Of a DNA stretch of 33,856 bases, positions 5,881-33,856 are shown piece by piece; the first letter of the stretch is position 1; the number at the start of each line of letters is the position of its first letter. Source of the stretch: Lachnospiraceae bacterium (GTDB lineage: Bacteria > Bacillota > Clostridia > Lachnospirales > Lachnospiraceae). The stretch lies in NCBI GenBank assembly GCA_045617445.1, contig JAZLIP010000061.1, positions 1 to 33,856 on the forward strand, written 5' to 3'. A program made the translations under genes and the position numbers. Below the pieces are notes generated by a model. That model ran no database searches, was not told where the DNA came from, and was given only the letters and a program-made list of their open reading frames with translations.

Positions 5881-8800
5881 ATGGCATTACGACTGTTTCT
5901 TGGCGGCGCAGGAAGCGGCAAATCTACGCAAATGTACAAAAGGATAATAAATGAATCGATTGCCAATCCAACAACCAATTATGTTATTTTGGTTCCGGAG
6001 CAGTATACGCTGTCCACGCAATATAAGCTGGTATCCATGCATCCTAAAAAAGGAATTTTGAATATTGATATTTTAAGTTTTGAAAGACTTGCATATCGCA
6101 TTTTTGAAGAGGTTGGATATTTGAATGCTCAGGGTGTTGTTCTGGATGATATCGGTAAGAATCTTCTGTTACGGCATATTGCCAAAATGCATGAGGATGA
6201 ACTTACATCACTCGGTGGAATATCCGGTAAACTTGGATATATAAGTGAAGTTAAATCGGTTATCTCGGAATTTATGCAATATGGTATCGGTGAAAATGAA
6301 GTAAAGGAGCTCATTAAACAGAGCGCCGGTAAAGGGCAGTTAAACAGTAAACTCACAGACCTCGCTTTTCTTTACGGCGAATTCCTTACGTATATAAAAA
6401 ATAAATATGTTACTGCTGAGGAAGTGTTGAGCAAAGTTAGCAATGTGGTACATTTGTCGGACAAAATAAAGCATTCAGTGATTGTGCTTGACGGATATAC
6501 CGGCTTTACTCCGGTACAGTATGATTTGCTTACACGTCTTATTGACAATTCCCAAGATGTATATGCATCAATACTTTTGGATGTGCGTTCGCAGAAAACA
6601 ACGGCTGAAATCATAGGAGAGCCGGAGGAAAATGAGCTTTTCTATCTTAGCAAAAAGACTTTGGTAAAGCTGCAACAGATTGCGGATGAACTTAGAATAA
6701 ATGAACGGGAGATAGTTCGTATTGATGACGATATACCTATAAGATTTGGCTTTGTTGCGGAAGAAAATCATAAGAACGAAATTCCTAAAATGCTTGTGCA
6801 TCTTGAACGCAATCTGTTTAGAGAATGTGAGAAAGCATATTGTGATGAAGCTACAGGCGATATCAGAATTTTTTGCGGAACCAATCCTGATGATGAAGCA
6901 ATGGAAGCTGCCGTGAGAATTTGTGAGCTGATGCGAAATAAGAATTACAGGTATAGTGATATAGCTGTGGTTAGTGGTGATATTGCAATTTATGAGGGTG
7001 CAATATCGCGTGCATTTTCAAGATATGATTTACCCTTCTTTATTGATAAGACAAGGCCTGTTTTGCTAAATCCGCTTATTGAATTTATTCGTGCAACCAT
7101 TGAAGTTGTTGTTTCGGATTTCTCTTATGAAAGTGTATTCAAATTTCTTAGAAGTAATATGCTTGATATTGAGTGTGATGATATTGATGAGTTGGAAAAT
7201 TATGTTTTAAAACATGGGGTGTCGGGAAAGAAAAAATGGTCCCAACCTTTTGTGATGCGTGGTACTACGGAAGAGGATAAACTGTCGGGACTTAACAGAA
7301 CACGCGAAATTGTATTTGATGCTTTTGGGACACTTTTGAGTGAACTTGGTGATTGCACTGCAAATCATGTGGAAATTTACGCAAGTGCGATTTATAATTT
7401 TTTAATATCCCATAATGCGGACAAATGCATGGCGGATTATGAACTGCATTTTAAAACAATCGGAGATGATGCAAGAGCCAAGGAATTTGAAAAGATATTT
7501 GATGAGGTAATTATACTGCTTGAGAAGATGGTGGAGCTTCTTGATGGTGAGGAGATTTCATTCGAGGAATTCGGCGAATTGATGGATGCGGGTTTTGCGG
7601 AAATTCGAACAGGGGTAGTGCCGAGAACAAATGACTATATACAGGTTGGAGATATAACAAGAACCCGCCTTAGGGATGTAAGAGCGTTGTTTTTCGTAGG
7701 GGTTAATGACGGGATTATTCCGAGCAGGAATAATGGCGGTGGAATAATTTCCGATATGGAAAGAGAATTTCTTAAGGATAATGACAAAGGAATTGAACTG
7801 AAGCCGACAGTGCGAATGCAGGCTTTTACCGAACGACTTTATTTGTATATGTTAATGGCTAAACCTTCGGAAGTTTTGTACCTTTCTTACAGTCTTATGT
7901 CTGATGAGTATGAAAGTATAGCGCCTTCGTATCTTATAAAGCAGGTAAGGCGGATGTTCCCGAAATTGAAAGAGGAAAAAGGAACCGGGCAATTGTCAAC
8001 CCGAGTCTTTAATCGGAAGTCAGCGCGTTTTGAATTGAGTCGTCATCTGCAGGAAAACCTGACAAAACAAGATGTACTATATAACGGACTACTAAGTGAA
8101 GCGCGCAGGATATCTGACGATGCTTCAATTTTTGAGGTATTTCACAACAATGTCGTGAGTTCTGTTACAACAAAAGAAGATTCAATTGGCAAAACGGTTG
8201 CGAATATTCTTTTTGGTAAAGAAATTGAATGTTCGGTCACACGGCTTGAAACGTATGCTAAGTGTGCATTTAGTCATTTCGTTAAATATGGGCTTCAACT
8301 GAAGGAAAGAGAAATTATGTCTTTTGAAGCGAAGGATATAGGTAGTGTATTCCATGATTCGCTTCAAAAGTATGCATTGTTGCTTAAAGAACGTGGCAGA
8401 AATTGGACTGATGTTACCGAAGAAGAAAAGAAAGAATTGATTGAAGAGGCAATTACAAGATGTATTAACAGCGGAGAATATGATGCTATCTATGGTTCTT
8501 TCAGAACGAAGTATATGTTTAACAGAATGAATCGTATTTTGAAACGAACAGTAGATACTCTTTCAATTCAGTTGCAAAAGGGTAGATTTGTTCCATATGC
8601 TTATGAGTTTGGTTTCTATTCTACAGATGATTACACAACGCTTAATATTAAATTATCGGATGAGGAAAGAATTCGACTTCGGGGAAGAATAGACCGAGTC
8701 GATTTGTGCGAGGATGACGGCAACGTTTATGTTAAGATTATTGATTACAAGTCCGGAAACAAGAAATTTGATCTTGCTGCGATATATGAAGGACTTGATT

Positions 8801-9372
8801 TGCAGTTGGTCGTGTATTTGAATGCGGCTAAGGAAGCATTGGAAAAACGGGAAAGAGAAAGTGGCTTAAATCGGGAAGTTGTTCCTGCGGGAATACTTTA
8901 CTATCATATCGATGATCCGCTGATAGATGCCGATGAAGTGAAGAATGATGATGATATAAATGCGAAAATCATTTCAAAGCTTAAAATGCAGGGACTCATT
9001 AATTCCGAGCGAAGCGTTATTTCTCTTATGGATGAGGAAATGACAGATTCATCTCAGGTTATTCCTGTTCGTTTCGGAAAAAACGGAGAGTTTGCAAGGG
9101 GCAGTTCTGTGGCGTCTAAAGAGCAGTTTGAAATTATGTCTGAATATGTTGTAGAGAAAATTGCAACTATGGGAAAAGAAATCATGGATGGGCGAATTGA
9201 TGTTAATCCTAAGTTAGATTCCAACATGAAGCCGATGGCATGTAAATATTGTGATTATTCTAATATATGCGGATTTAAGACAGTGGTTTCGGATGATGCG
9301 GATGATGCAACAGATGATTACTCGAAATGTTCCTATGAGGAATTGTTTCAGAAAATGAAGGATAGTAAGTAA
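5881..9372 (+). CDS. addB: Helicase-nuclease AddAB, subunit B
   Basis: 1163-aa ORF with an N-terminal Walker A GGAGSGKST. The C-terminal nuclease region has the four Cys pattern expected for the AddB Fe-S cluster (AKCAF ... CKYCDYSNIC). AAGGAGAG RBS, and the gene is directly upstream of addA. Confidence 0.9.
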   Translation: MALRLFLGGAGSGKSTQMYKRIINESIANPTTNYVILVPEQYTLSTQYKLVSMHPKKGILNIDILSFERLAYRIFEEVGYLNAQGVVLDDIGKNLLLRHIAKMHEDELTSLGGISGKLGYISEVKSVISEFMQYGIGENEVKELIKQSAGKGQLNSKLTDLAFLYGEFLTYIKNKYVTAEEVLSKVSNVVHLSDKIKHSVIVLDGYTGFTPVQYDLLTRLIDNSQDVYASILLDVRSQKTTAEIIGEPEENELFYLSKKTLVKLQQIADELRINEREIVRIDDDIPIRFGFVAEENHKNEIPKMLVHLERNLFRECEKAYCDEATGDIRIFCGTNPDDEAMEAAVRICELMRNKNYRYSDIAVVSGDIAIYEGAISRAFSRYDLPFFIDKTRPVLLNPLIEFIRATIEVVVSDFSYESVFKFLRSNMLDIECDDIDELENYVLKHGVSGKKKWSQPFVMRGTTEEDKLSGLNRTREIVFDAFGTLLSELGDCTANHVEIYASAIYNFLISHNADKCMADYELHFKTIGDDARAKEFEKIFDEVIILLEKMVELLDGEEISFEEFGELMDAGFAEIRTGVVPRTNDYIQVGDITRTRLRDVRALFFVGVNDGIIPSRNNGGGIISDMEREFLKDNDKGIELKPTVRMQAFTERLYLYMLMAKPSEVLYLSYSLMSDEYESIAPSYLIKQVRRMFPKLKEEKGTGQLSTRVFNRKSARFELSRHLQENLTKQDVLYNGLLSEARRISDDASIFEVFHNNVVSSVTTKEDSIGKTVANILFGKEIECSVTRLETYAKCAFSHFVKYGLQLKEREIMSFEAKDIGSVFHDSLQKYALLLKERGRNWTDVTEEEKKELIEEAITRCINSGEYDAIYGSFRTKYMFNRMNRILKRTVDTLSIQLQKGRFVPYAYEFGFYSTDDYTTLNIKLSDEERIRLRGRIDRVDLCEDDGNVYVKIIDYKSGNKKFDLAAIYEGLDLQLVVYLNAAKEALEKRERESGLNREVVPAGILYYHIDDPLIDADEVKNDDDINAKIISKLKMQGLINSERSVISLMDEEMTDSSQVIPVRFGKNGEFARGSSVASKEQFEIMSEYVVEKIATMGKEIMDGRIDVNPKLDSNMKPMACKYCDYSNICGFKTVVSDDADDATDDYSKCSYEELFQKMKDSK

Positions 9373-9402
9373 ATTGGATTATATGAGGTATATGGGCTGA
9401 AA

Positions 9403-12400
9403 ATGGGATTCACAGATGAGCAAAGACGGGCAATTGAATTAAGGGATAAGAATCTTCTGCTTTCTGCTGCGGCGGGATCGGGAAAGACGACGGTGCTTGT
9501 TGAACGTATTATTGGACGCATTCTTGATGAAGATAATCCGGTTGATGTTGATCGATTACTGGTTTGTACGTTTACAAAGGCTGCGGCCGAGCAGATGAAA
9601 GACAAGATATTTAGAGCAATTGAAGAGAGAAGAATCGCTGACCCTTATAATAAGCATTTAATTAAACAGGCATCGCTTATTCACAATGCGCATATAACTA
9701 CGATACATGGTTTTTGTCTTGAAGTAATACGGAATCATTTTCATGAAATCGGGTTAAATCCTGATTTTAGAGTGGGGGATGAAGGCGAATGCTCTCTTAT
9801 GCGTAATGATGCGCTTGAATTGGTTTTGGAGAATGCCTACAAGGAAGGCAGAGAATCTTTTGTTATCACGTCTGAATCAATTGCATCTAAAAAGGATGAC
9901 AGAAGTCTGCCACCGGTTATCGAAAGATTATACAATCTTGCGGTCAGCAATCCTTACCCTGAATTGTGGCTTGAATCATGTCTTGAGCCTTTTGAAGTGG
10001 AAAATTATGAAGAATTTGGCGGATTGGAATTTGTAAGATATCTTATCTCTTATGTCAAAGCAAGCTTTGAAGATGCACTTAAAAGTGCAAAAAATGCTTA
10101 TGAAATATGCTGTGATATTGATGGCCCGTATATGTATAAGGAGGCATTTGACTCTGATATAGAGTTCCTTGAAAATATGTGCGAACTGTCAGCGTATGAT
10201 GAATATTATAATGTGTTGAAAGGGTTAGCCTTTAAAACGCTTGGGCGAGCAAAAAAAAATGGACCTTATGTAGATGTTGACATACAGAACCGGGTAAAAA
10301 ATATAAGAGAATCCTATAAAAAGGGAATAACCGCAATTGCATCGGAAATTTTTGGAAAAAGCCTTTTGGAACAGTTCGTACTTATGAAAAAAACATATCC
10401 GATTGCATGTGAACTTGTAAAGCTTACAATTGAGATGAAAAACAGATATTCCGAAATGAAACGCAGGAAGAATATAGTTGATTTTAATGATTTGGAGCAT
10501 TTCTGTATTGAGATTCTTGAAAGCTCCAATTCTGAAACAGCAAACGAATATCGGAATTATTTTGAAGAAATATATGTGGACGAATATCAGGACAGTAATC
10601 TTGTTCAGGAGAAGATGCTTACTCTTATTTGTCGCCGAAACAATATGTTTATGGTTGGTGACGTCAAACAAAGCATATATAAATTCCGAATGGCACGACC
10701 TGAACTTTTTATGGAGAAGTATGATTCTTTTTCTGACAGTGATGGTGAAAATATACGAATAGACTTGCATCATAATTTCAGAAGCCGTGAGAGTGTTCTT
10801 GATTCGGTCAATGAATTGTTTTATAAAATAATGTCAAAAGAAAACGGTGGAATTGATTACGATAAGAAGGCTGCACTTTACGCAGGCTTAAAATTCCCAC
10901 CGGTTTCCGATAAGTTTAAGAAGACAGAGTTACTTCTTGTGAATAAGGAGGATGGAATAAACAGTAAGGAACTTGAGGCTAAGGCAATTGCATTTAGGAT
11001 AAAAAGAATGTTTGCCGATGGTCAGGAGGTTACGGATGAATCAGGAGAAAGTCTTCGTGCATTGAAATATTCGGATATTGTTATTCTTCTTAGGAGCGCT
11101 TCGGGATATGATGAAATTTTCAAAAGAATTCTAAGTGCAGAAGGAATTCCTGTTGATGTTGTAAGTGCCACCGGCTATTTCTCGGCACGTGAAGTTTCAG
11201 TGTTGCTTGATTACTTGAAAATTATTGATAACCCAAAACAAGATATACCTTTGACGGCATGTTTACGTTCGTATTTCGGTGGATTTAGTAACAGCGAACT
11301 GGTTTTTGTTGTGAAAATCAAGGAAAATGCAGAATTATATGAGAAACTGAAATTTATTGCCAATGCATCTAAGGAGGAAATTGAAACTGCCGGTAAGGAG
11401 TTTCCTGATGCATTTGATTTCGGGAAAATACAAGTAAAAGTCAGAACTTTTCTTGAAGAGCTTGATAGATGGCGACAGAGAGTACCTTATACACCAATTT
11501 ATGAAATACTTAATGAAATAATAGATGGAAATTATGGACTGAGTGTTTTGTCGGAGAAGAATGGAGAGAAAAAATATGCCAATCTTAATATGCTTCTTAA
11601 GAAAGCACGTGATTTTAGCGAAACAAGTTTTAAAGGTCTTTTTCATTTTGTAAGATATATTGAGGTCCTTCATAAATATGATATTGATTATGGTGAGGCA
11701 AATGTTTCTTCTGCTGATTCGGATGCAGTCAAAATCATGACCATTCATAAGAGCAAAGGTCTTGAATTCCCGATATGTTTTATTGCGGGTATGAACAAGA
11801 AATACAATTTTTCGGACAAAGATGGTTTGGTTGTGCCTGATATGGATTACGGTCTCGGAATTGATTATATAGATCTTGATAAGAGAATCAAAGAGAAAAC
11901 ATTGCTTGAAATTGTGAATTCACGCAAAATTGTCGATGAAAGTTGTAATGAAGAACAACGTATTTTATATGTTGCGATGACTCGCGCTAAGGAAAAATTA
12001 ATAATGACCGGAGTAGTCAAAGAAGCCGAGGAGTATTTTACGAAAGCGAAGAATTTGTCTAAATGTATTTCGTACCTGGACTTGTTTTCCTATGCAAACA
12101 GTATTGAAGAGTTGAAGAATGTTGCGGTCAATACAGTATCAATATCATCACTTGTCGAGGCTGAAGTTTCCGAAGGAATAAATCTTGAATTGAATCGTTT
12201 ACAAATTGAAAATATACTTTGCGGAAAAGAATCGGTTCCGTTATCTGAGTTTTTAATTGAAAGAATGAACTATTCTTATTTGCATGAGAATGACGCGGAT
12301 GTTTGTCGGAAGATTTCGGTTACGGAATTAAAAAAGAGAAGTATGCATGTGCCGGTGAGTGAAAATGATTTGCCGGAGGATAGTGTGCAACTGATTAAAA

Positions 12401-15678: not shown

Positions 15679-16932
15679 ATGGATAGCAACAAGGATAGAA
15701 GAAGGAAAGTTCAATCGGTGCAGGATATGATTGGTATCGGTTCGGAATTTGAAAGGTCGATGCATGGTTCCTTTGACGGAATAGGGCAATCGGGCAGAAA
15801 TAACAGGAATCCTAATATGCCGCCTATGATGAATCAAGGCATGAATCAGGGAATGAATCCTAATATGCCACCTATGATGAATCAAGGCATGAATCCACGG
15901 CAAAATAGTATTTTCCCAAATGATGCCAGTGAAAGGCTTGCAAATGAACTTAGAAAGAATATAAATGGTAGAAATGGTGCGGAATCAAGGGATAATCGTG
16001 AACATTCGAAAAAAAGACACGGGTATTCGGAAAGAAGCGGTGATAATTCAGAAAAATACAGGAATAATTCACAAAATAGCAATTCTGTTGCAAGTTTGCT
16101 GAGAGAATTTTCGGGGATTGCACCATATGCATATTGCGCAATTCTTGTGATATGTCTTATGACGGCATTGATTGCCTACGGAACAACGCATAAAGGGACT
16201 TCTTCCTATAACATTCCTACTGACGGAACTATATTGACGGGGGTTATTCCTGAATTGTTTTTAAAAACTTTGGATGGTGCGACTTCAAATGTTGGTATGT
16301 CGGAAGATGGTACATCGCAAATACCCGAGGCACCCGTTGCAAATACTGATCTTACGGGAAATTCGGGAAGCAGTCAGGTACATACTGTTCCATCAGGAAC
16401 TGATAATGTATCGGGGGCAGCAATGGTCGTTGATAGCGGTGCGGGTGTTCAGGGATATTCGGAAGCTGCTTCTTATTCCGAATTGCTTACACAGATAGAG
16501 AGTGCAATTGCAATCGGTGATGTGAACTTCGTAGGAAGTAAACTTTGCTATAAGGATGATGAAGGTAATATTTGCGGTTATCCGCAGTCGGTAGTGGATT
16601 ATTTCGTATCATATATGTCTTTGGAATCTGAGAAGAGAGCCGGCTTTATTTCAGAAATTACAGCTGATAAATATTCATATACAAACGGTGACGTGTATGT
16701 TGTTTGCCTTCCAAAGATTAAGTTTGTTGTAAATATGGGATATGATAATACGACGGTTTCTTTGTCGGGATTTGCCGATCAAGTTGTAAATGCCGGTGAG
16801 AAAGCGGAAATTGCTCCGTTGTTACCTTGTATGTATACAATTGTTATAAGTAATGACGAATGGCCGGAGTCGACGACAAGATCACTCGAGGCAAATGTGA
16901 ATGAAACACAACTGGCGATAAATATTAAATAA
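15679..16932 (+). CDS. Bitopic membrane protein: disordered N/Q/M/P-rich cytoplasmic N-terminus, one TM helix, extracytoplasmic C-terminal domain; function unknown
   Basis: 417-aa ORF with a GGGAGAG RBS. The N-terminal ~150 aa are low-complexity (NPNMPPMMNQGMNQGM repeated, then R/S/N-rich). A single TM helix (YAYCAILVICLMTALIAYG) is followed by a Ser/Thr/Gly-rich linker and a ~170-aa globular-looking region. Confidence 0.65.
   Translation: MDSNKDRRRKVQSVQDMIGIGSEFERSMHGSFDGIGQSGRNNRNPNMPPMMNQGMNQGMNPNMPPMMNQGMNPRQNSIFPNDASERLANELRKNINGRNGAESRDNREHSKKRHGYSERSGDNSEKYRNNSQNSNSVASLLREFSGIAPYAYCAILVICLMTALIAYGTTHKGTSSYNIPTDGTILTGVIPELFLKTLDGATSNVGMSEDGTSQIPEAPVANTDLTGNSGSSQVHTVPSGTDNVSGAAMVVDSGAGVQGYSEAASYSELLTQIESAIAIGDVNFVGSKLCYKDDEGNICGYPQSVVDYFVSYMSLESEKRAGFISEITADKYSYTNGDVYVVCLPKIKFVVNMGYDNTTVSLSGFADQVVNAGEKAEIAPLLPCMYTIVISNDEWPESTTRSLEANVNETQLAINIK
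15808..15897 (+). repeat. 48-nt in-frame tandem repeat (about 1.9 units) inside the CDS
   Basis: aatcctaatatgccNcctatgatgaatcaaggcatgaatc occurs at 15808 and again at 15856 with a single substitution. Each unit encodes NPNMPPMMNQGMN. Confidence 0.9.
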
Positions 16933-17728: not shown

Positions 17729-17753
17729 AAGAATCCGCCATCGGCGGATTCTT
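17729..17753 (+). terminator. Hairpin terminator candidate after the GT2 gene
   Basis: AAGAATCCGCC (17729-17739) pairs perfectly with GGCGGATTCTT (17743-17753). The loop is very short and the downstream T tract is only moderate (ttgtcgatt). Confidence 0.55.
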
Positions 17754-17814
17754 GTCGATTCATGATAAAAGGAAGAGTTTAGAAACGCACATTTCGTTTG
17801 GAGGGGAACAGATT

Positions 17815-19293
17815 ATGAATTGGAAACAATTAATGTGTGATGAGCGCATAAGACAAAATAATTACAGGAAAAACCGTCCGTCAAATGATTTGAGAACGGA
17901 GTTTGAGAAAGATTATCACCGTATTATTTCAAGTGCGTCTTTTAGAAGGTTACAGGATAAAACACAGGTCTTTCCGCTGGACAAAAGTGATTTTATAAGG
18001 ACAAGGCTGACACATTCACTAGAGGTTTCCTCTTTCGCCAAATCCTTGGGACAAACTGTCGGGACATCTGTAATTAACCAAAAACTCGATCCTGATTTTG
18101 ACGAGCAAACACGTGATGATATATGTAATGTACTTCAATGTGCGGGGCTTATTCACGACATAGGCAATCCTGCGTTTGGACATTTTGGCGAGAGCGCTAT
18201 TCAGGACTGGTTTAAGAAGAATCTTGAAAAACTGGAGTATGACGGTGTTAAGCTTACCGAAATTCTAACCTCGCAGATGCAACAGGATTTTTATAATTTT
18301 GAAGGGAATACTCAGGCATTCCGAGTTGTTACCAAGTTGCATTTTCTTGTGGACGAGCATGGAATGAATCTGACAAAAGCATTGCTTGCAACAATCATTA
18401 AATATCCGTGTTCTTCACTTGAAATACGTTATGATAGAACTGATGAAAATCGCGATATAAAGCATAAGAAAATGGGCTATTTTTGCGCGGATGCTGAGAA
18501 TTTCATCAATGTTGTTGAAAGTTGCGGGACAAAGGGCGTTAGACATCCTTTGACTTATCTTTTGGAAGCGGCGGATGATATTGCCTATAATACCGCGGAT
18601 ATTGAGGATTCGATTAAGAAGGGGTGCATTGACTATTCGAAGCTTCTCTTGGAACTTAAAACTTTTGCTGACAAAATTAGAATCGAAAAATTTATTGACA
18701 GTGAAAATGTAACCGATGCGGCATTTGAAAATATAAATACATTGATTGCGAGTCTTGAAAAGTATCATGCACGTGCAGTTGATTGCGGATATAGCAATCC
18801 TGATTTGTATGCGGTTTCCAATTGCATGGTTGTTGCACAGGGGATATTGATTAAATGCGCAACGGATTCTTTTGTAGACAATTATGATGCAATAATGGCA
18901 GGTGATTTTAAACGTGATTTGCTTTCTGCTTCAAACGGAAATTATATTATTGATGCACTTTCCGATATTGCATACAGGTATGTGTTCATTTCGAAACCTA
19001 TTTTGAAATTAGAGGTTGCTGCAGATTGTATTTTTGATTTCCTTCTTACAAAATTTGTAAATGCTTTTATCTACTATGACACATCTTTATGGAACCGTAA
19101 GAAAAATGCTGTTGCCGATAAACTTACAAGACTTATTTCAGATGATTATTTAAGGATATATAAAGTATATTCTGAAGGTATGAGTGAAGATGTCAAACTT
19201 TATTTACGTTTGTTGCTGGTTACTGATTATATTTGCGGTATGACTGACGGATTTGCCAAGAGACTTTATCAGGAACTTAATGGAATAAGCTGA
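17815..19293 (+). CDS. dgt: Dgt-type deoxyguanosinetriphosphate triphosphohydrolase (HD-domain dNTPase)
   Basis: Motifs DYHRIISSASFRRLQDKTQVFPL, RTRLTHSLEVS and GLIHDIGNPAFGH resemble enterobacterial Dgt. I prefer the ATG at 17815 (GGAGGGG RBS). The track start at 17752 lies inside the upstream hairpin. Confidence 0.85.
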   Translation: MNWKQLMCDERIRQNNYRKNRPSNDLRTEFEKDYHRIISSASFRRLQDKTQVFPLDKSDFIRTRLTHSLEVSSFAKSLGQTVGTSVINQKLDPDFDEQTRDDICNVLQCAGLIHDIGNPAFGHFGESAIQDWFKKNLEKLEYDGVKLTEILTSQMQQDFYNFEGNTQAFRVVTKLHFLVDEHGMNLTKALLATIIKYPCSSLEIRYDRTDENRDIKHKKMGYFCADAENFINVVESCGTKGVRHPLTYLLEAADDIAYNTADIEDSIKKGCIDYSKLLLELKTFADKIRIEKFIDSENVTDAAFENINTLIASLEKYHARAVDCGYSNPDLYAVSNCMVVAQGILIKCATDSFVDNYDAIMAGDFKRDLLSASNGNYIIDALSDIAYRYVFISKPILKLEVAADCIFDFLLTKFVNAFIYYDTSLWNRKKNAVADKLTRLISDDYLRIYKVYSEGMSEDVKLYLRLLLVTDYICGMTDGFAKRLYQELNGIS

Positions 19294-21398: not shown

Positions 21399-22460
21399 TT
21401 GAAGAAAGAAAAATTGCATTATCTTGATATTGCAAGAGGAATTGGAATAATTGTAGTTATACTTGCGCATGTTGATACGGGTGATAATCCGGTATGTTCA
21501 TGGATTGGCTCTTTTTGCATGTCAATTTTTTTTGTTGTTTCGGGAGCGCTTCTTTTCTATCTTGACGGATGGCGCAAGGAATCTTTTTGGAGTATTGTCG
21601 TTAAGAGGCTTAAAGGTGTTCTTTATCCGTATTTTACTTTCAGTGCACTTGTTATTGCATTTTATGCTTTTTTGCGTATTGTATTCAGACAGGGCAGCTT
21701 TTCAAATATTCTTGAAATTGCAAAGAGTACGGTTCGCTTAGAGGGCTATGATGCACTTTGGTTTATGCCGACACTTTTTTTTGCGGAATTGATTTTTCTG
21801 CTCTATATGCGTTTTGTTCCGGAGAAGAAAACAGGAAGAAGTAAAGATATACTTGAATATTTGGGATTTTTCGTTACGCTTGCCTTAAGCTTGATTTTAT
21901 ATGCAATTCTACATTACGGGATTATTGAAGAGTATGCCGATGGATGGTTTGGCGTAGTCAAGATTACACGTGTATTAATGTCTGCCGTTTTTATTTATGC
22001 CGGTTATTTCTATTTTAAGTTTAAAGATAAATTAATTGCCTGTAACAGAAAAGTTGTATCAGCTGTTATGATTGCAATTCTTCTTCTTGATCCGATTGTG
22101 TGTCAGCCGAACCATTTTGTAGATTATGCATTTGTAAGAATTGTAAGTTTACCATTACTTTATGTTTGCGGTATTCTTGTGCCGGTTGCTATTCTCTATT
22201 TGCTTGAGGTATATAACGTAAGAAGTAAATGCTTTGAATTTTTTGGAAAAAATTCACTTACTATGATGGCAACTCATAATCCGATTCCTTTGCTTGTGAC
22301 GGTGAGGAGTTTGTATAAAGATTTTGCTCCGGGCATTTACCGTTATCTTGATGATGTGATTATTCTTGTGATTATTGTTTTACTTGAAATCCCACTTGTA
22401 ATGTTGATTAACAAATTTTTGCCATTTCTTGTGAGATTTCCTAAAAAAGGAACTAAGTAA
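21399..22460 (+). CDS. Acyltransferase family 3 (OafA/WecH-like integral membrane O-acetyltransferase)
   Basis: 353-aa polytopic ORF beginning KLHYLDIARGIGIIVVILAHV, a typical AT3 N-terminus with the conserved His. The apparent TTG start makes the start position uncertain. Confidence 0.7.
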   Translation: MKKEKLHYLDIARGIGIIVVILAHVDTGDNPVCSWIGSFCMSIFFVVSGALLFYLDGWRKESFWSIVVKRLKGVLYPYFTFSALVIAFYAFLRIVFRQGSFSNILEIAKSTVRLEGYDALWFMPTLFFAELIFLLYMRFVPEKKTGRSKDILEYLGFFVTLALSLILYAILHYGIIEEYADGWFGVVKITRVLMSAVFIYAGYFYFKFKDKLIACNRKVVSAVMIAILLLDPIVCQPNHFVDYAFVRIVSLPLLYVCGILVPVAILYLLEVYNVRSKCFEFFGKNSLTMMATHNPIPLLVTVRSLYKDFAPGIYRYLDDVIILVIIVLLEIPLVMLINKFLPFLVRFPKKGTK

Positions 22461-24007
22461 TGAACAGTGGAAACCGAACTTCAAATACTATCAGAAATAC
22501 CTCCGTTGCTCTTGTATGTCAGGTGATAAGAACGGTATTTAGTTTTATTTGCCGTGTCGTATTTGCAAGATGTCTGGCGAGGGTTTATCTCGGACTTGAC
22601 GGTGTGTTTGCAAATGTAATAGGTATACTTTCATTGGCTGAACTTGGCATCGGTTCTGCGCTTGAGTATGAATTGTTTCAGGCAGTAGCAAAAGGCGATG
22701 ATGGGGAAACCGCCGCTATGGTGAAGTATTATAAGAAGATTTTTTCATTCATCAGCATTGCGATTTCCGGGATAGGTGTAATTGCAATTCCTCTTGCCAA
22801 TTGGTATGTCGGAAAATACGGTAATCTTGAGGGAGTGTCCGAAAGTATTACACTTATTTATCTGCTTTATCTTGCGAATACGGTTATTTCATATTTGAAT
22901 CTTGATAAGAAAGCAATTATATGTGCATATCAGGATACTTATATTGATTCCATTGCAAAGGAAGCAATAGTAAGCGTCCAAAATATCGTACAATTCGTAT
23001 TGCTTATTTGCACACGAAATATTATTGTGTATCTAATCTGTCAGGTTTTATTTACCTTCATATACAATCAAACAATCAGAATCATTGCGATTAAGCGATA
23101 TCCTGCCATTAATATTTCAAATCCGCCGGAGGTATCCGCAACAAAAAAACGCAGGATGCTTGAGAATGTCAAAGCACTTTTTATTGTTCGATTGTCAATT
23201 GCACTTGTATCTGCGACCGATAACCTGATTGTAACAGCTTTTTGCGGGCTGGAGATGACCGGTGTAAACAGCAATTATACGGTAATAATGTCATGCCTTA
23301 ATAACTTTGCATACAAAATACGTGAAAGTTTAACACCAAGTCTCGGAAATTTGAATGCGAAGGAAAATGATGAGAAGAAAATCAGCATTCTTTATGAATT
23401 GATGTTTGGAAGCTTCTGGTTGTATATGTTGTGTACTGTCGGTTTCAATTGTCTTGTTCAGGATGTTGTTCTTCTTTGTTTTGGTGAACGCTACATTATT
23501 GAGTATCCTGTAGTAGTAATTACAGGTGTTAATTTTTTTGTACTTCAAATGCAGGTGCTTCCGGATATGTATAAATCAACTTTGGGATTATTCAAATACG
23601 GAAGATTTGTTGCATTAACCAAAGGCATTCTTAACATTATTATTTCAATACTTTTGGGAAAAGTCTGGGGTGTGTTTGGTATTCTTTTTGCCACATTTAT
23701 TTCGATGGTTGTCACTGAGGTTTGGTATACGCCATATATTATTTTCAAAAAAGGTCTTAATCGCTCGCCGCTTGGGTATTATAAGAAAATATTGCTGCTG
23801 TGGGGTGAAGCAGTATTGATTTTTACAATTACATATTATATATGTGAGCTGTTTAAATTGCCGCTTATTTTGGATATGTGTGCGCGTTTTGCGGTGTGCA
23901 TGATTGTACCGAATGTTATAGTCTATATTTTTCATCATAGAACCGAAGCATATAGTAATTTGGTCGGAAGAATTTATCTCCGTGGGAGAAGACACCCACT
24001 TCTATAA
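22460..24007 (+). CDS. Wzx-type (MOP superfamily) oligosaccharide flippase
   Basis: 515-aa ORF with about 12-14 TM segments. The N-terminus NTIRNTSVALVCQVIRTVFSFICRVVFARCL..GLDGVF..ILSLAELGIGSAL is typical of polysaccharide biosynthesis flippases. Its ATG overlaps the upstream stop (TAATG). Confidence 0.75.
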   Translation: MNSGNRTSNTIRNTSVALVCQVIRTVFSFICRVVFARCLARVYLGLDGVFANVIGILSLAELGIGSALEYELFQAVAKGDDGETAAMVKYYKKIFSFISIAISGIGVIAIPLANWYVGKYGNLEGVSESITLIYLLYLANTVISYLNLDKKAIICAYQDTYIDSIAKEAIVSVQNIVQFVLLICTRNIIVYLICQVLFTFIYNQTIRIIAIKRYPAINISNPPEVSATKKRRMLENVKALFIVRLSIALVSATDNLIVTAFCGLEMTGVNSNYTVIMSCLNNFAYKIRESLTPSLGNLNAKENDEKKISILYELMFGSFWLYMLCTVGFNCLVQDVVLLCFGERYIIEYPVVVITGVNFFVLQMQVLPDMYKSTLGLFKYGRFVALTKGILNIIISILLGKVWGVFGILFATFISMVVTEVWYTPYIIFKKGLNRSPLGYYKKILLLWGEAVLIFTITYYICELFKLPLILDMCARFAVCMIVPNVIVYIFHHRTEAYSNLVGRIYLRGRRHPLL

Positions 24008-24035
24008 GTGGGTGAATGAGCGAGCGAGTCTTGAA
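23972..24035 (+). repeat. S-element copy A
   Basis: atttatctccgtgggagaagacacccacttctataagtgggtgaatgagcgagcgagtcttgaa. It is homologous to 30567-30624 and 33011-33055. It overlaps the last 12 codons and the stop of the flippase ORF. Confidence 0.75.
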
Positions 24036-30140: not shown

Positions 30141-30169
30141 TTGACAATTAAACGGAAGAGAAGTATTAT
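30141..30169 (+). promoter_or_regulatory. SigA-type promoter of groESL
   Basis: TTGACA (30141-30146), a 17-nt spacer, then TATTAT (30164-30169). It sits directly upstream of the CIRCE operator. Confidence 0.8.
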
Positions 30170-30177
30170 ACACTATG

Positions 30178-30204
30178 TTAGCACTCGATAGGAAAGAGTG
30201 CTAA
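30178..30204 (+). promoter_or_regulatory. CIRCE operator (HrcA binding site)
   Basis: TTAGCACTC-GATAGGAAA-GAGTGCTAA, a perfect match to the CIRCE consensus TTAGCACTC-N9-GAGTGCTAA. It lies between the promoter and groES. Confidence 0.95.
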
Positions 30205-30271
30205 CAAAAAGAAGCCAATATTATTTACACTGGTAAATATGAGACAATATTTAATTTTAGGAGGTAGAATC

Positions 30272-30556
30272 ATGAAATTAGTACCATTAGGTGACAGAGT
30301 TGTACTTAAGCAACTTGTAGCAGAGGAAACTACAAAATCGGGAATTGTATTGCCGGGTCAGAGTAAAGAGAAGCCACAGCAGGCAGAGGTTGTTGCGGTT
30401 GGTCCGGGAACTGTTGAGGATGGTAAGGAAATCAAGATGGAAGTTAAGGTTTCAGATCAGGTAATTTACTCTAAATATGCCGGTACAGAAGTTAAACTTG
30501 ATGATGAAGAGTATATTATTGTAAAGCAGAGTGATATTCTTGCAATTGTGAAATAG
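30272..30556 (+). CDS. groES: Co-chaperonin GroES
   Basis: 94-aa product MKLVPLGDRVVLK..TKSGIVLPG. GGAGG RBS 7 nt before the ATG at 30272. The track start at 30239 is an in-frame upstream extension. Confidence 0.95.
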   Translation: MKLVPLGDRVVLKQLVAEETTKSGIVLPGQSKEKPQQAEVVAVGPGTVEDGKEIKMEVKVSDQVIYSKYAGTEVKLDDEEYIIVKQSDILAIVK

Positions 30557-30566
30557 TTGTTACTAT

Positions 30567-30624
30567 GTTATCTCAGTGAGAGAGCGCCTCACTTCTATAG
30601 GTGTGGGATTGAGCGCGTCTTGAA
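30567..30624 (+). repeat. S-element copy B (inside the groES-groEL spacer)
   Basis: gttatctcagtgagagagcgcctcacttctataggtgtgggattgagcgcgtcttgaa. It is homologous to copies A and C and fills most of the 91-nt groES-groEL spacer. Confidence 0.75.
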
Positions 30625-30635
30625 TTTAAATTTAG

Positions 30636-32270
<1,635 letters not shown>

Positions 32271-32386: not shown

Positions 32387-32980
32387 TTAATATCCCAATA
32401 TTTCCCGTGTTATGTATGGCGTGTTTTCGTATTTGTGTGTCTTTATTGAATATTTCCTTGCGGCTTCTAAATTTTCTTCCAAATCATCAATAAACAGGCA
32501 GTTTTCAGGAATAAGATTGTACCTTTCAATCAAGAGCTTGTATATTTCTAAATCAGGTTTAATGACGTTTTCTTTGTAAGAGAAGATTCCACCGTCGGTA
32601 TGTTCAATAAAGTTCATTGCATCTTTGTTTGCATATAAGGCCTGATGTGAAAAGTTGGAAAGGTAAAGCACTTTAATGCCCTGACTTTTTAATTCTTCAA
32701 TCCAAGGGATTGCATAATCACGTTTTCTTATAATTCCTTTAAGATCTTTAAAAGCATCTTTTAGATGATGACTTATTTCAGGATCGTTTTTGGCAAATAA
32801 TTCAAGTATTTCTTCTGTTGTAAGAATGCCACGGTCAAATTCCTTCCAAGCATCGTGGTGTACGGATGCTTTGGCTATTCTTGCAATCATTGCAGAGTCG
32901 AAGCCTTTTTCTTCAAGGAATTCCCTCCATGCAAAATCAACCAAAACATTTCCAATATCAAATATTACTGTTGTTATCAT
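32387..32980 (-). CDS. HAD-superfamily phosphatase (YihX-like subfamily IA)
   Basis: 197-aa ORF. Motif I variant VIFDIGNVLVDF resembles the YihX-type FDLGNV. The late motif is LFIDDLEENLEAA. Confidence 0.75.
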   Translation of the reverse strand: MITTVIFDIGNVLVDFAWREFLEEKGFDSAMIARIAKASVHHDAWKEFDRGILTTEEILELFAKNDPEISHHLKDAFKDLKGIIRKRDYAIPWIEELKSQGIKVLYLSNFSHQALYANKDAMNFIEHTDGGIFSYKENVIKPDLEIYKLLIERYNLIPENCLFIDDLEENLEAARKYSIKTHKYENTPYITREILGY

Positions 32981-33010: not shown

Positions 33011-33055
33011 ATTTATCTCAGTGAGAGAAGCCTCATTTCTATAAGTGGGTGATTG
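33011..33055 (+). repeat. S-element copy C (truncated after GATTG)
   Basis: atttatctcagtgagagaagcctcatttctataagtgggtgattg. It lies between two minus-strand genes but in the same orientation as copies A and B. Confidence 0.75.
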
Positions 33056-33081
33056 TTACCGGTCAAAGGCTGCACAGTAAC
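33054..33081. repeat. R-element copy 5
   Basis: tgttaccggtcaaaggctgcacagtaac. The first 12 nt are identical to copy 1 and it has the same ACAGTAAC end. It lies within the last 9 codons (SYCAAFDR*) of the minus-strand CDS. Confidence 0.7.
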
Positions 33082-33856
33082 TGTTAAATGTTTCTTCATC
33101 CATATATTTTGAAAATGCATGCAGTGCATAGGGAATATTTCCGTTTTCAATTTCAGTCTGCATATTTTCTTCCAAAGCAAATTTAGAGGCAGCTTCCGTT
33201 TGCACGGAGGAATAGCCGTTAAAACCAATTGATGCAAAATATGAAAAAAACATATCCTCATTGAAACGCCAGAAAAAATCCAGCAGAAATTTCTTTGACC
33301 GAATCAGATCAAGAGAATGGCGAACATGTCTTAAGGAGAATCCACCATTACCAACGTGTATTTTATCGGGGTGTTTTACTATAAGTAACTTAATCCTGTC
33401 TTTGGGCGTATATGGTCTGCTAAAGGGACCGTTTAGCCAGGGCGCACCCCAATAATCAATATGTTCCTTTTTGGATTGACTGATGAAGTCATCAAGGCAA
33501 TAATCCATTGTATTTAATATGTAAGTATCTGATTGAGCAATCAACATATACTCATAATCGTAAAAAGGAAAATAGAATTGCTCTGAAAGGAGCAAACGGC
33601 TGTAAGTTTTATTGGATTTGAAATATTTATTCTTAAACGGCAGAAATTTGGTTCTGCTAAGAATATCCTGATTACCTGACTGTTTGGAACCATCTTCGGA
33701 ACAATGTTCATTTTTATACAATTCCACTACAATGTTTTCATACTCCGAAATATCCATCAGGAAAGGATGTACAAAGAAAATATCATAGCCATTTAATACC
33801 GAACAATTTCTTTTGATGGATAGGATTTCTGATTTGGCAGGTTTTTCATTGTATAT
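33056..33856 (-). CDS. DUF5672-like protein (putative glycan-related), 5' end outside the window
   Basis: On the minus strand the frame stays open from the track ATG (33757) to the window edge (..IYNEKPAKSEILSIKRNCSVLNGYDIFFVHPFLMDISEY..), so the gene is probably 5'-truncated here. The motifs WGAPW and GNGGFSLR recall DUF5672, but that family call is from memory only. Confidence 0.5.
   Translation of the reverse strand: MYNEKPAKSEILSIKRNCSVLNGYDIFFVHPFLMDISEYENIVVELYKNEHCSEDGSKQSGNQDILSRTKFLPFKNKYFKSNKTYSRLLLSEQFYFPFYDYEYMLIAQSDTYILNTMDYCLDDFISQSKKEHIDYWGAPWLNGPFSRPYTPKDRIKLLIVKHPDKIHVGNGGFSLRHVRHSLDLIRSKKFLLDFFWRFNEDMFFSYFASIGFNGYSSVQTEAASKFALEENMQTEIENGNIPYALHAFSKYMDEETFNSYCAAFDR

Follow-up and report, generated by a model that had tools for sequence, protein, structure and literature searches.

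What are the three similar, very short stretches of DNA that recur on one strand of a Lachnospiraceae contig, and how did one of them come to lie between groES and groEL? The window (33,856 nucleotides [nt], the whole of contig JAZLIP010000061.1 in assembly GCA_045617445.1) had first been read from its letters alone, and this sequence-only reading located three + strand copies at about 23972-24035, 30567-30624, and 33011-33055; the copies are there, with the sequences that it quoted. We refer to them as copies A, B, and C and ask whether they are truly related, where each begins and ends, and by what route they are likely to have spread.

Three copies of one element

The similarity among the three stretches is not accidental. 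Their 16-nt core, TTATCTCNGTGRGAGA, is matched three times in the window against an expectation of 0.11 (a count of three is reached in none of 100 shuffles), pairwise identity among the copies is 87 to 92% over 39 to 54 aligned nt, and nhmmer detects homologs of them elsewhere, in other genomes, at E-values as low as 1e-19. These results refute a chance resemblance of three AT-rich intergenic stretches, for which the shortness of the copies is the sole point in favor and whose probability we put close to nil. All three are genuine copies of one small mobile DNA element that carries no genes and belongs to a known general type. An nhmmer profile search of the window found none beyond A, B, and C.

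The core of about 45 nt originally described is a real repeat, but the empty and occupied alleles presented below show that its leading TTAT is flanking target sequence and lies outside the element. As such, the elements proper span 23978-24035 (A), 30572-30624 (B), and 33017-33055 (C), and the features of the three copies are as follows:

23973..23977, + strand: TTTAT target motif (TAM-like), host sequence flanking the left end of copy A; border carried over from another locus
23978..24035, + strand: copy A, short form of 58 nt, consisting of the left-end module plus the tail ...GAGCGAGCGAGTCTTGAA (from sequence and alignment)
23993..24014, + strand: left-end hairpin of copy A, CACCCACTT-CTAT-AAGTGGGTG, 9 perfect bp (from folding and family pair counts)
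24031..24035, + strand: right-end boundary motif TTGAA (TEM-like) of copy A, differing from TTTAT at positions 3 and 5
30567..30571, + strand: GTTAT (TTAT) target motif at the left end of copy B, 11 nt past the groES stop codon
30572..30624, + strand: copy B, short form of 53 nt, within the groES-groEL spacer (from sequence and alignment)
30587..30607, + strand: left-end hairpin of copy B in decayed form (a T-T mismatch, a G.G, and a wobble pair)
30620..30624, + strand: right-end boundary motif TTGAA of copy B
33012..33016, + strand: TTTAT target motif at the left end of copy C
33017..33055, + strand: copy C, 39 nt, left-end module only, right-end tail absent

The tail GAGCG..GTCTTGAA is common to A and B, as had been noticed from the letters, and copy C ends at GATTG, its 3′ end having been lost. 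Each copy stands in a different relation to its neighboring genes. Copy A supplies an open reading frame (ORF) at 22460-24007 (515 aa) with its last 11 codons and its stop codon, which probably amounts to a C-terminal replacement relative to the ortholog of this ORF in the related lineage L035; the stop codon itself (TAA, 24005-24007) lies across the point in the left-end hairpin at which the loop gives way to the 3′ arm. Copy B lies between groES (Cpn10 by Pfam) and groEL (Cpn60) without disrupting the stop codon of the former or the ribosome-binding site of the latter (AGGAGG, 30634-30639), 9 nt upstream of which it ends. Copy C, which points the same way as the others, lies between two minus-strand genes and is antisense to both, namely, a DUF5672 gene (33056-33757, −), whose stop codon it adjoins, and a HAD hydrolase gene (32387-32980, −).

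Two other stretches of the window deserve mention. The sequence GATTGCGAGTCTTGAAAA (18741-18760, in the ORF at 17752-19293) is similar to the short form where its left module meets the tail, probably by chance (exact match of 12 nt; E = 0.21). Near-perfect 41-nt direct repeats, GAATCCTAATATGCC[G/A]CCTATGATGAATCAAGGCATGAATC, at 15807-15895 within the ORF at 15679-16932 suggest a repetitive Asn/Pro/Met-rich protein segment.

Empty sites and exact borders

The groES-groEL spacer is indeed enlarged, as the sequence-only reading had it: it measures 91 nt (groES stop at 30556, groEL ATG at 30648), versus 42 to 53 nt in four related lineages. The nearest relative, L035 (GroEL 94% identical), is syntenic with the window across the three sites and has the element at none of them:

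groES-groEL spacer: 91 nt in the window, 42 nt in L035
515-aa ORF to GT11 gene: 62 nt in the window, 36 nt in L035
HAD gene to DUF5672 gene: 75 nt in the window, 12 nt in L035

When the element is subtracted from the groES-groEL spacer, the remaining 38 nt align end to end with the spacer of L035. The spacers of the other relatives measure 47 to 53 nt, and a search of about 120 kb from five related lineages returned no copy of the element. Copy B is decayed, given that it folds like shuffled sequence and has three non-Watson-Crick positions in its hairpin (see below), and it is best read as an old insertion that has been tolerated in the groESL transcript.

Several further observations concern the groESL region. 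In L095/L096 (9913-10000; GroEL 93% identical), the groES-groEL spacer is 88 nt long owing to an unrelated hairpin insert (GTCATTAAGGTACCGC...GCGGATTCCTTATGAC), such that this spacer seems to tolerate structured inserts repeatedly. The window has the usual HrcA-controlled arrangement upstream of groES, with a near-consensus promoter (TTGACA-17-TATTAT) and, after it, a CIRCE operator (TTAGCACTC-N9-GAGTGCTAA), together at 30141-30206. In the related metagenome-assembled genome (MAG) L034, the GroEL gene call at 8996-11035 is 679 aa long, versus an expected ~540 aa, and a look-up of the exact GroES protein of the window returned no record.

The exact borders come from a different species, SGB_5634, in which the element (L006) is flanked by a tRNA terminator on one side and a gene for a MATE transporter on the other. 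Conspecific contigs, collected by means of their 99%-identical MATE protein, display three alleles at this locus. The empty allele (L103-L107 and four more similar places) reads ...CTTGTCTTAT joined directly to TAAAAATG, with the longer right flank TAAAAATGATTGG. The occupied, long-form allele (L006) reads ...CTTGCCTTAT, then the element (CTCAGTG...GTCTTGAA), then TAAAAATGATTGG. A third allele (L100 and L101) is rearranged: it is without the left hairpin and has an extra insert of 84 nt. This insert begins with TTAT, is situated within the inner segment of the element, and may be a nested insertion; comparison of L100/L101 (3745-3955) with L006 (192-373) also shows the first hairpin to be flipped, its loop reading ATTGAA in the former and TTCAAT in the latter. 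Two more contigs, L099 and L102, end inside the element, as is typical of assembly breaks at repeats.

Comparison of the empty and occupied alleles gives unambiguous junctions (between T and C on the left and between A and T on the right), and the element therefore begins at the C of CTCAGTG and ends with ...TTGAA. At this one locus, in a species other than that of the window, it is inserted directly 3′ of TTAT without any duplication of the target site, and the empty site consists of the motif plus the right flank (the donor-joint form; L103-L107 versus L006 and L100). The left-hand rule extends across the family: TTAT is found directly 5′ of nine of nine Lachnospiraceae copies (the three of the window included), and TTTAT is found 5′ of the AT-rich relatives described below. 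A recombinase with a 2-bp overlap was considered and rejected, since a 2-bp crossover core common to both sites would leave the right flanks unequal by one T. The examination of relatives for empty sites thus yielded absence of the element at the L035 sites and presence or absence among strains at the MATE locus.

Among the roles first suggested for the repeats, that of a MITE-like mobile element has come closest. Like classical MITEs (for example, RUP and Correia elements), the copies are small, noncoding, multicopy, and present or absent between strains. Classical MITEs, however, have terminal inverted repeats and target-site duplications. No inverted repeat joining the termini was found in L006 or in copies A and B, and with neither such repeats nor a target-site duplication present, the strict MITE model is rejected.

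A modular family and its hairpins

Scanning one genome per species for the exact core pattern returned matches in few Lachnospiraceae MAGs (JAZQNM, JAZQQJ, and a Pseudobutyrivibrio MAG), all of them short elements, and the Lachnospiraceae copies number nine in all. Longer members, of about 120 to 180 nt, carry extra hairpins. One version, of about 180 nt and found in L006 and L003, has four parts. The first is CTCAGTGAGAGAAGA, situated directly after TTAT, with the left-end hairpin CCCCCACTT-CTAT-AAGTGGGGG (here H1) followed by ATTGA; the second is another hairpin, TCTCAGTGGGGG-TTCAAT-CTCCCACTGAGA (H2); the third is a GC-rich segment of nested hairpins; and the fourth is a tail hairpin ending in GTCTTGAA. 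Judged by their sequences, the window copies are short, internally deleted members of this dispersed family. Copies A and B, together with the copies at loci L007, L004, and L001, keep both ends but differ in their internal deletions, the pattern expected of non-autonomous mobile elements; the right end is missing from window copy C and from L002. Deletion in the short forms of the window has also removed the 5′ arm of the right-end hairpin. In two strains of the Pseudobutyrivibrio species (L001, 6457-6484, versus L093, 3376-3408), the element occupies the same pepP-polA site, one of the two copies having lost the loop of its second hairpin through a 5-nt deletion.

A scan of metagenomes for the hairpin core revealed, on AT-rich contigs, a related family whose members are about 115 nt long. 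These share the left hairpin, have a counterpart of the second one, and add a third (H3), and they are multicopy and sometimes tandem or partial (three copies in L025 and four in L021). On the left, TTTAT borders them directly before CGATTC, and on the right they end in TTCAC or TTTAC. In both families, the right-end hairpins (the tail hairpin or H3) are unlike H1 in sequence. Overall, the family is modular, with a fixed flanking motif and a conserved left-end hairpin.

The sequence-only reading had drawn two mutually exclusive hairpins that would use the same segment, and these fared differently. Its hairpin 2 (CAYTT-CTAT-ARGTG) is upheld, being the left-end hairpin H1 of the family: it has 9 perfect bp in copy A, and, across 25 family members, 89.8% of its cells pair, with one clearly covarying pair (U-A in 12, C-G in 6, and A-U in 2). 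Its hairpin 1 (GTGRG/CYCAY), for which a "compensatory" substitution in copy A had been cited, does not hold up, given that 392 of 500 shuffles do as well. Of the nine Lachnospiraceae copies, six have an unpaired A.C at the position said to be compensated; two others have A-U there and the last has G-C. The window copies each depart from the A.C consensus by a single one-sided change. With the compensation of hairpin 1 failing over these nine copies, a switch between the two structures is unsupported. The second hairpin of the family, H2, which the window copies do not have, does covary: 6 of its 12 pairs are changed on both sides, and its covariation score was reached by none of 500 shuffles. 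ATTGAC together with the H2 loop has the look of an outward promoter, but this idea was dropped: a scan for promoter consensus sequences did not return it, and the window copies do not contain it.

Folding separates the three window copies. Copy A folds better than its shuffles (z = −2.5 as RNA and −4.3 as DNA), whereas copy B (z = −1.2 and −0.8) and copy C (z = 0.0 and −0.3) fold no better than theirs, and their hairpins contain three and four non-Watson-Crick positions, respectively. The long form of about 180 nt folds far better than shuffles (z = −8).

Conserved hairpins within transcripts raise the question of whether the element serves its host as a cis-acting RNA module (a processing, stability, or attenuator hairpin) kept by selection in transcripts such as that of groESL. 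The covariation that keeps H1 and H2 is in line with such a role, as are the wobble pairs counted over both helices (22 G.T versus 11 A.C, which slightly favor the + strand and are only weakly informative), the sense orientation to a neighboring gene in seven of the nine Lachnospiraceae copies, and a minus-strand reading (H1, then TCTTCTCTCA) that scores as terminator-like. However, the genes flanking the copies (encoding GroEL, GT11, HAD, DUF5672, PepP/PolA, GlnRS, and the MATE transporter) are functionally unrelated, which argues against a gene-specific regulatory RNA. Moreover, both orientations occur, the groES-groEL spacers of related lineages are without the element (with that of L095/L096 having its own, unrelated insert), strains differ in its presence at the MATE locus, and copies B and C fold like shuffled sequence. 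Nor does the element match an Rfam family. No Rfam 15 family reaches its gathering score anywhere in the window; scans at the gathering threshold of the window and 18 loci, and permissive scans of three regions, put nothing over any copy, with the best sub-threshold matches being Termite-leu (18 bits versus 51) and CRISPR-DR8 (17 bits versus 39), and the permissive scan of the groES-groEL spacer gave only noise. We therefore regard a host-serving RNA as rather improbable.

The 3′ domain of the long form, of which the window copies retain only the last 14 to 18 nt, has a distribution of its own. It is about 135 nt long and strongly structured (module 2 hairpin, ACGCTCCGCGAGGATGCG..., nested hairpins, and tail hairpin), and most of it, from the ACGC... 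segment to the tail hairpin, recurs without the left end in a gut phage contig (L037; MT836069.1, "Bacteriophage sp.," human feces, 1122-1596). There, an unrelated hairpin and ATAAAA precede the inner segment, many of whose stem positions are compensated relative to L006; this segment is situated just downstream of a cobalamin riboswitch (94.5 bits). A second phage contig (L038, 1-51) has the start of the GC-rich inner segment, with only the start visible due to the edge of the locus cutting the segment. BLAST searches of the long and AT-rich forms against plasmids and phages gave as their sole match one partial phage match, to the inner module. Scans of viral contigs returned no match to the hairpin core, 54 matches to the 16-mer (all chance occurrences in coding DNA), and one match to the start of the inner module. 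It is conceivable, if a long shot, that the 3′ domain is a functional RNA, perhaps an omega-RNA-like scaffold, or that the left module mimics a type I-B CRISPR repeat; if true, an omega-RNA-like scaffold would recruit a TnpB-type nuclease in trans and thereby protect the gene-less copies.

The CRISPR likeness can also be taken further, to the proposal that the copies are dispersed mimics or derivatives of a CRISPR repeat, each a solitary unit recognized by a Cas6-type nuclease. Module 1 of the AT-rich family without H1 (TTTTATCGATTCTATAAGA+ATTGAAGC) matches 21 of 28 positions of the type I-B repeat of Clostridium thermocellum, GTTTTTATCGTACCTATGAGGAATTGAAAC (PMC3737339); ATTGAA directly follows H1, much as the 8-nt handle comes after a stem-loop repeat, and the reverse complement of the Lachnospiraceae module 2 is GTTTATCTCAGTGGGAGATTGAAC. 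This comparison was made post hoc, and the Rfam match to CRISPR-DR8 is sub-threshold and on the opposite strand (E = 0.35 to 0.57). All copies are solitary, with neither arrays nor spacers, and a k-mer scan near the copies detected one array, of type II and with an unrelated repeat, leaving this proposal very unlikely. The array in question lies on an AT-rich contig with four copies of the element (L021, 14396-14915; 36-nt repeat GTTTGAGAGTAGTGTAATTCTATATGGTGGTTAAAC), on which a partial solitary copy of the type II repeat also occurs in a tracrRNA-like position just upstream of the start of a Cas9-like gene (8257-8400).

Routes of mobilization

The copies are probably short, internally deleted, gene-less elements of the IS200/IS605 type, that is, non-autonomous and PATE-like. 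This reading rests on hallmarks of IS200/IS605 elements, namely, exact insertion 3′ of TTAT, the lack of a target duplication, and the lack of terminal inverted repeats, along with subterminal hairpins (at both ends in the long forms and in the AT-rich family) and a right-end motif related to the flanking motif, all of which point to "peel and paste" transposition. Under such a mechanism, a Y1 (HUH) transposase supplied in trans would recognize the hairpins near the element ends and cut the top strand just after the flanking TTAT/TTTAT and again after the right-end TTGAA. The excised single strand would then be reinserted 3′ of another TTAT, preferentially on the lagging-strand template, and this single-strand route would neither produce a target duplication nor need inverted terminal repeats.

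IS608 and ISDra2 carry tnpA, with or without tnpB, and have two nearly identical end hairpins. The window copies differ from them in being gene-less and only 39 to 58 nt long. The family resembles IS608 and ISDra2 (PMC5027513) in inserting 3′ of a fixed tetra- or pentanucleotide with no target duplication and no inverted terminal repeats, and possibly in a bias toward the lagging-strand template. For IS200/IS605 elements in general, left-end insertion is always 3′ of a tetra- or pentanucleotide specific to the element, and members of this group prefer the lagging-strand template (PMC5027513). In the window, the GC skew of the + strand is +0.23 and all three copies are on that strand, placing all three top strands, including that of the antisense copy C, on the presumed lagging-strand template. 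In eight of the nine Lachnospiraceae copies, the top strand matches both GC skew and the direction of most genes, an agreement that is confounded with the direction of transcription, and the AT-rich family displays no clear orientation bias.

A closer parallel is found among the PATE-like ISGst elements of Geobacillus stearothermophilus (PMC10055086), which, like the copies described here, are gene-less, with asymmetric ends and subterminal hairpins. In both cases, TTTAT abuts the left end, the right-end motif differs from it at positions 3 and 5 (TTCAC in the described ISGst elements [PMC10055086] and TTGAA in ours), and the empty site is made up of the motif joined to the right flank. In the AT-rich relatives, the pair of motifs is exactly that reported for ISGst2, TTTAT (TAM) and TTCAC (TEM) (PMC10055086), the comparison with ISGst elements being one of motifs and anatomy. 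The Lachnospiraceae copies are unlike ISGst elements in their right-end motif (TTGAA), in the dissimilarity of their left and right hairpins, and in that no cognate tnpA or tnpB was found.

Against the IS200/IS605 reading stand this dissimilarity of the two hairpins and the absence, in the short forms of the window, of the 5′ arm on the right. The matches of the genome scan and the fetched DNA contained neither tnpA or tnpB nor a full-length element with these ends; a tblastn search of about 460 kb of fetched DNA with an IS200 TnpA query returned nothing, and no right-end tail was found far downstream of a left end, as would be the sign of a full-length element. The mobilizing enzyme, presumably a Y1 TnpA, is one that we infer.

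The missing transposase also bears on a further possibility, that the family is a repeat of the REP/BIME or BOX kind, owing its spread to a domesticated enzyme of the RAYT type, or to recombination or gene conversion between copies, and not to an IS200/IS605 transposase. Like pneumococcal BOX and enterobacterial REP/BIME sequences, the copies are short, modular, intergenic hairpin repeats, often at gene ends and within operons. Their modular mosaic, with modules added, lost, and flipped at a single locus (L006 versus L100), is what such repeats would lead one to expect, as are the tandem and partial copies in L021 and the many copies situated directly after terminators. RAYT enzymes are themselves Y1 HUH proteins of the same superfamily, so this proposal differs mainly in the acting enzyme. 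However, exact insertion 3′ of a fixed TTAT, together with a related right-end motif, is the signature of IS200/IS605 elements, and the AT-rich relatives carry the TAM/TEM pair of ISGst2; to our knowledge, and comparing by description, BOX and REP/BIME repeats have no fixed flanking tetranucleotide with exact, duplication-free insertion. There is also no GTAG-type tetranucleotide at the foot of the hairpin, where AAGA is found 5′ of H1. A REP- or BOX-like origin is, in our estimation, unlikely.

Read as IS200/IS605-type elements, the window copies would have had a mobile past: the junction of left module and tail common to A, B, and L007 suggests that the short forms once moved as such. Copies B and C, with their decayed hairpins, are presumably immobile fossils by now.

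Our literature search returned no relevant described repeat family of comparable kind from Lachnospiraceae or Clostridia, and the family itself appears undescribed, although its kind is known. What is new are the exact borders, the target motif, and a plausible mobilizing mechanism for a previously undescribed repeat family of gut Lachnospiraceae, along with a caution that a covariation argument built from three copies can mislead. Such repeats break metagenome assemblies, as in the two contigs that end within one (L099 and L102). They also rewrite the ends of genes, with 11 codons replaced by copy A, and can occupy essential operons, as copy B does in groESL, and each marks a TTAT site of the sort that an IS200/IS605 transposase, and possibly also an associated RNA-guided TnpB nuclease, would recognize.
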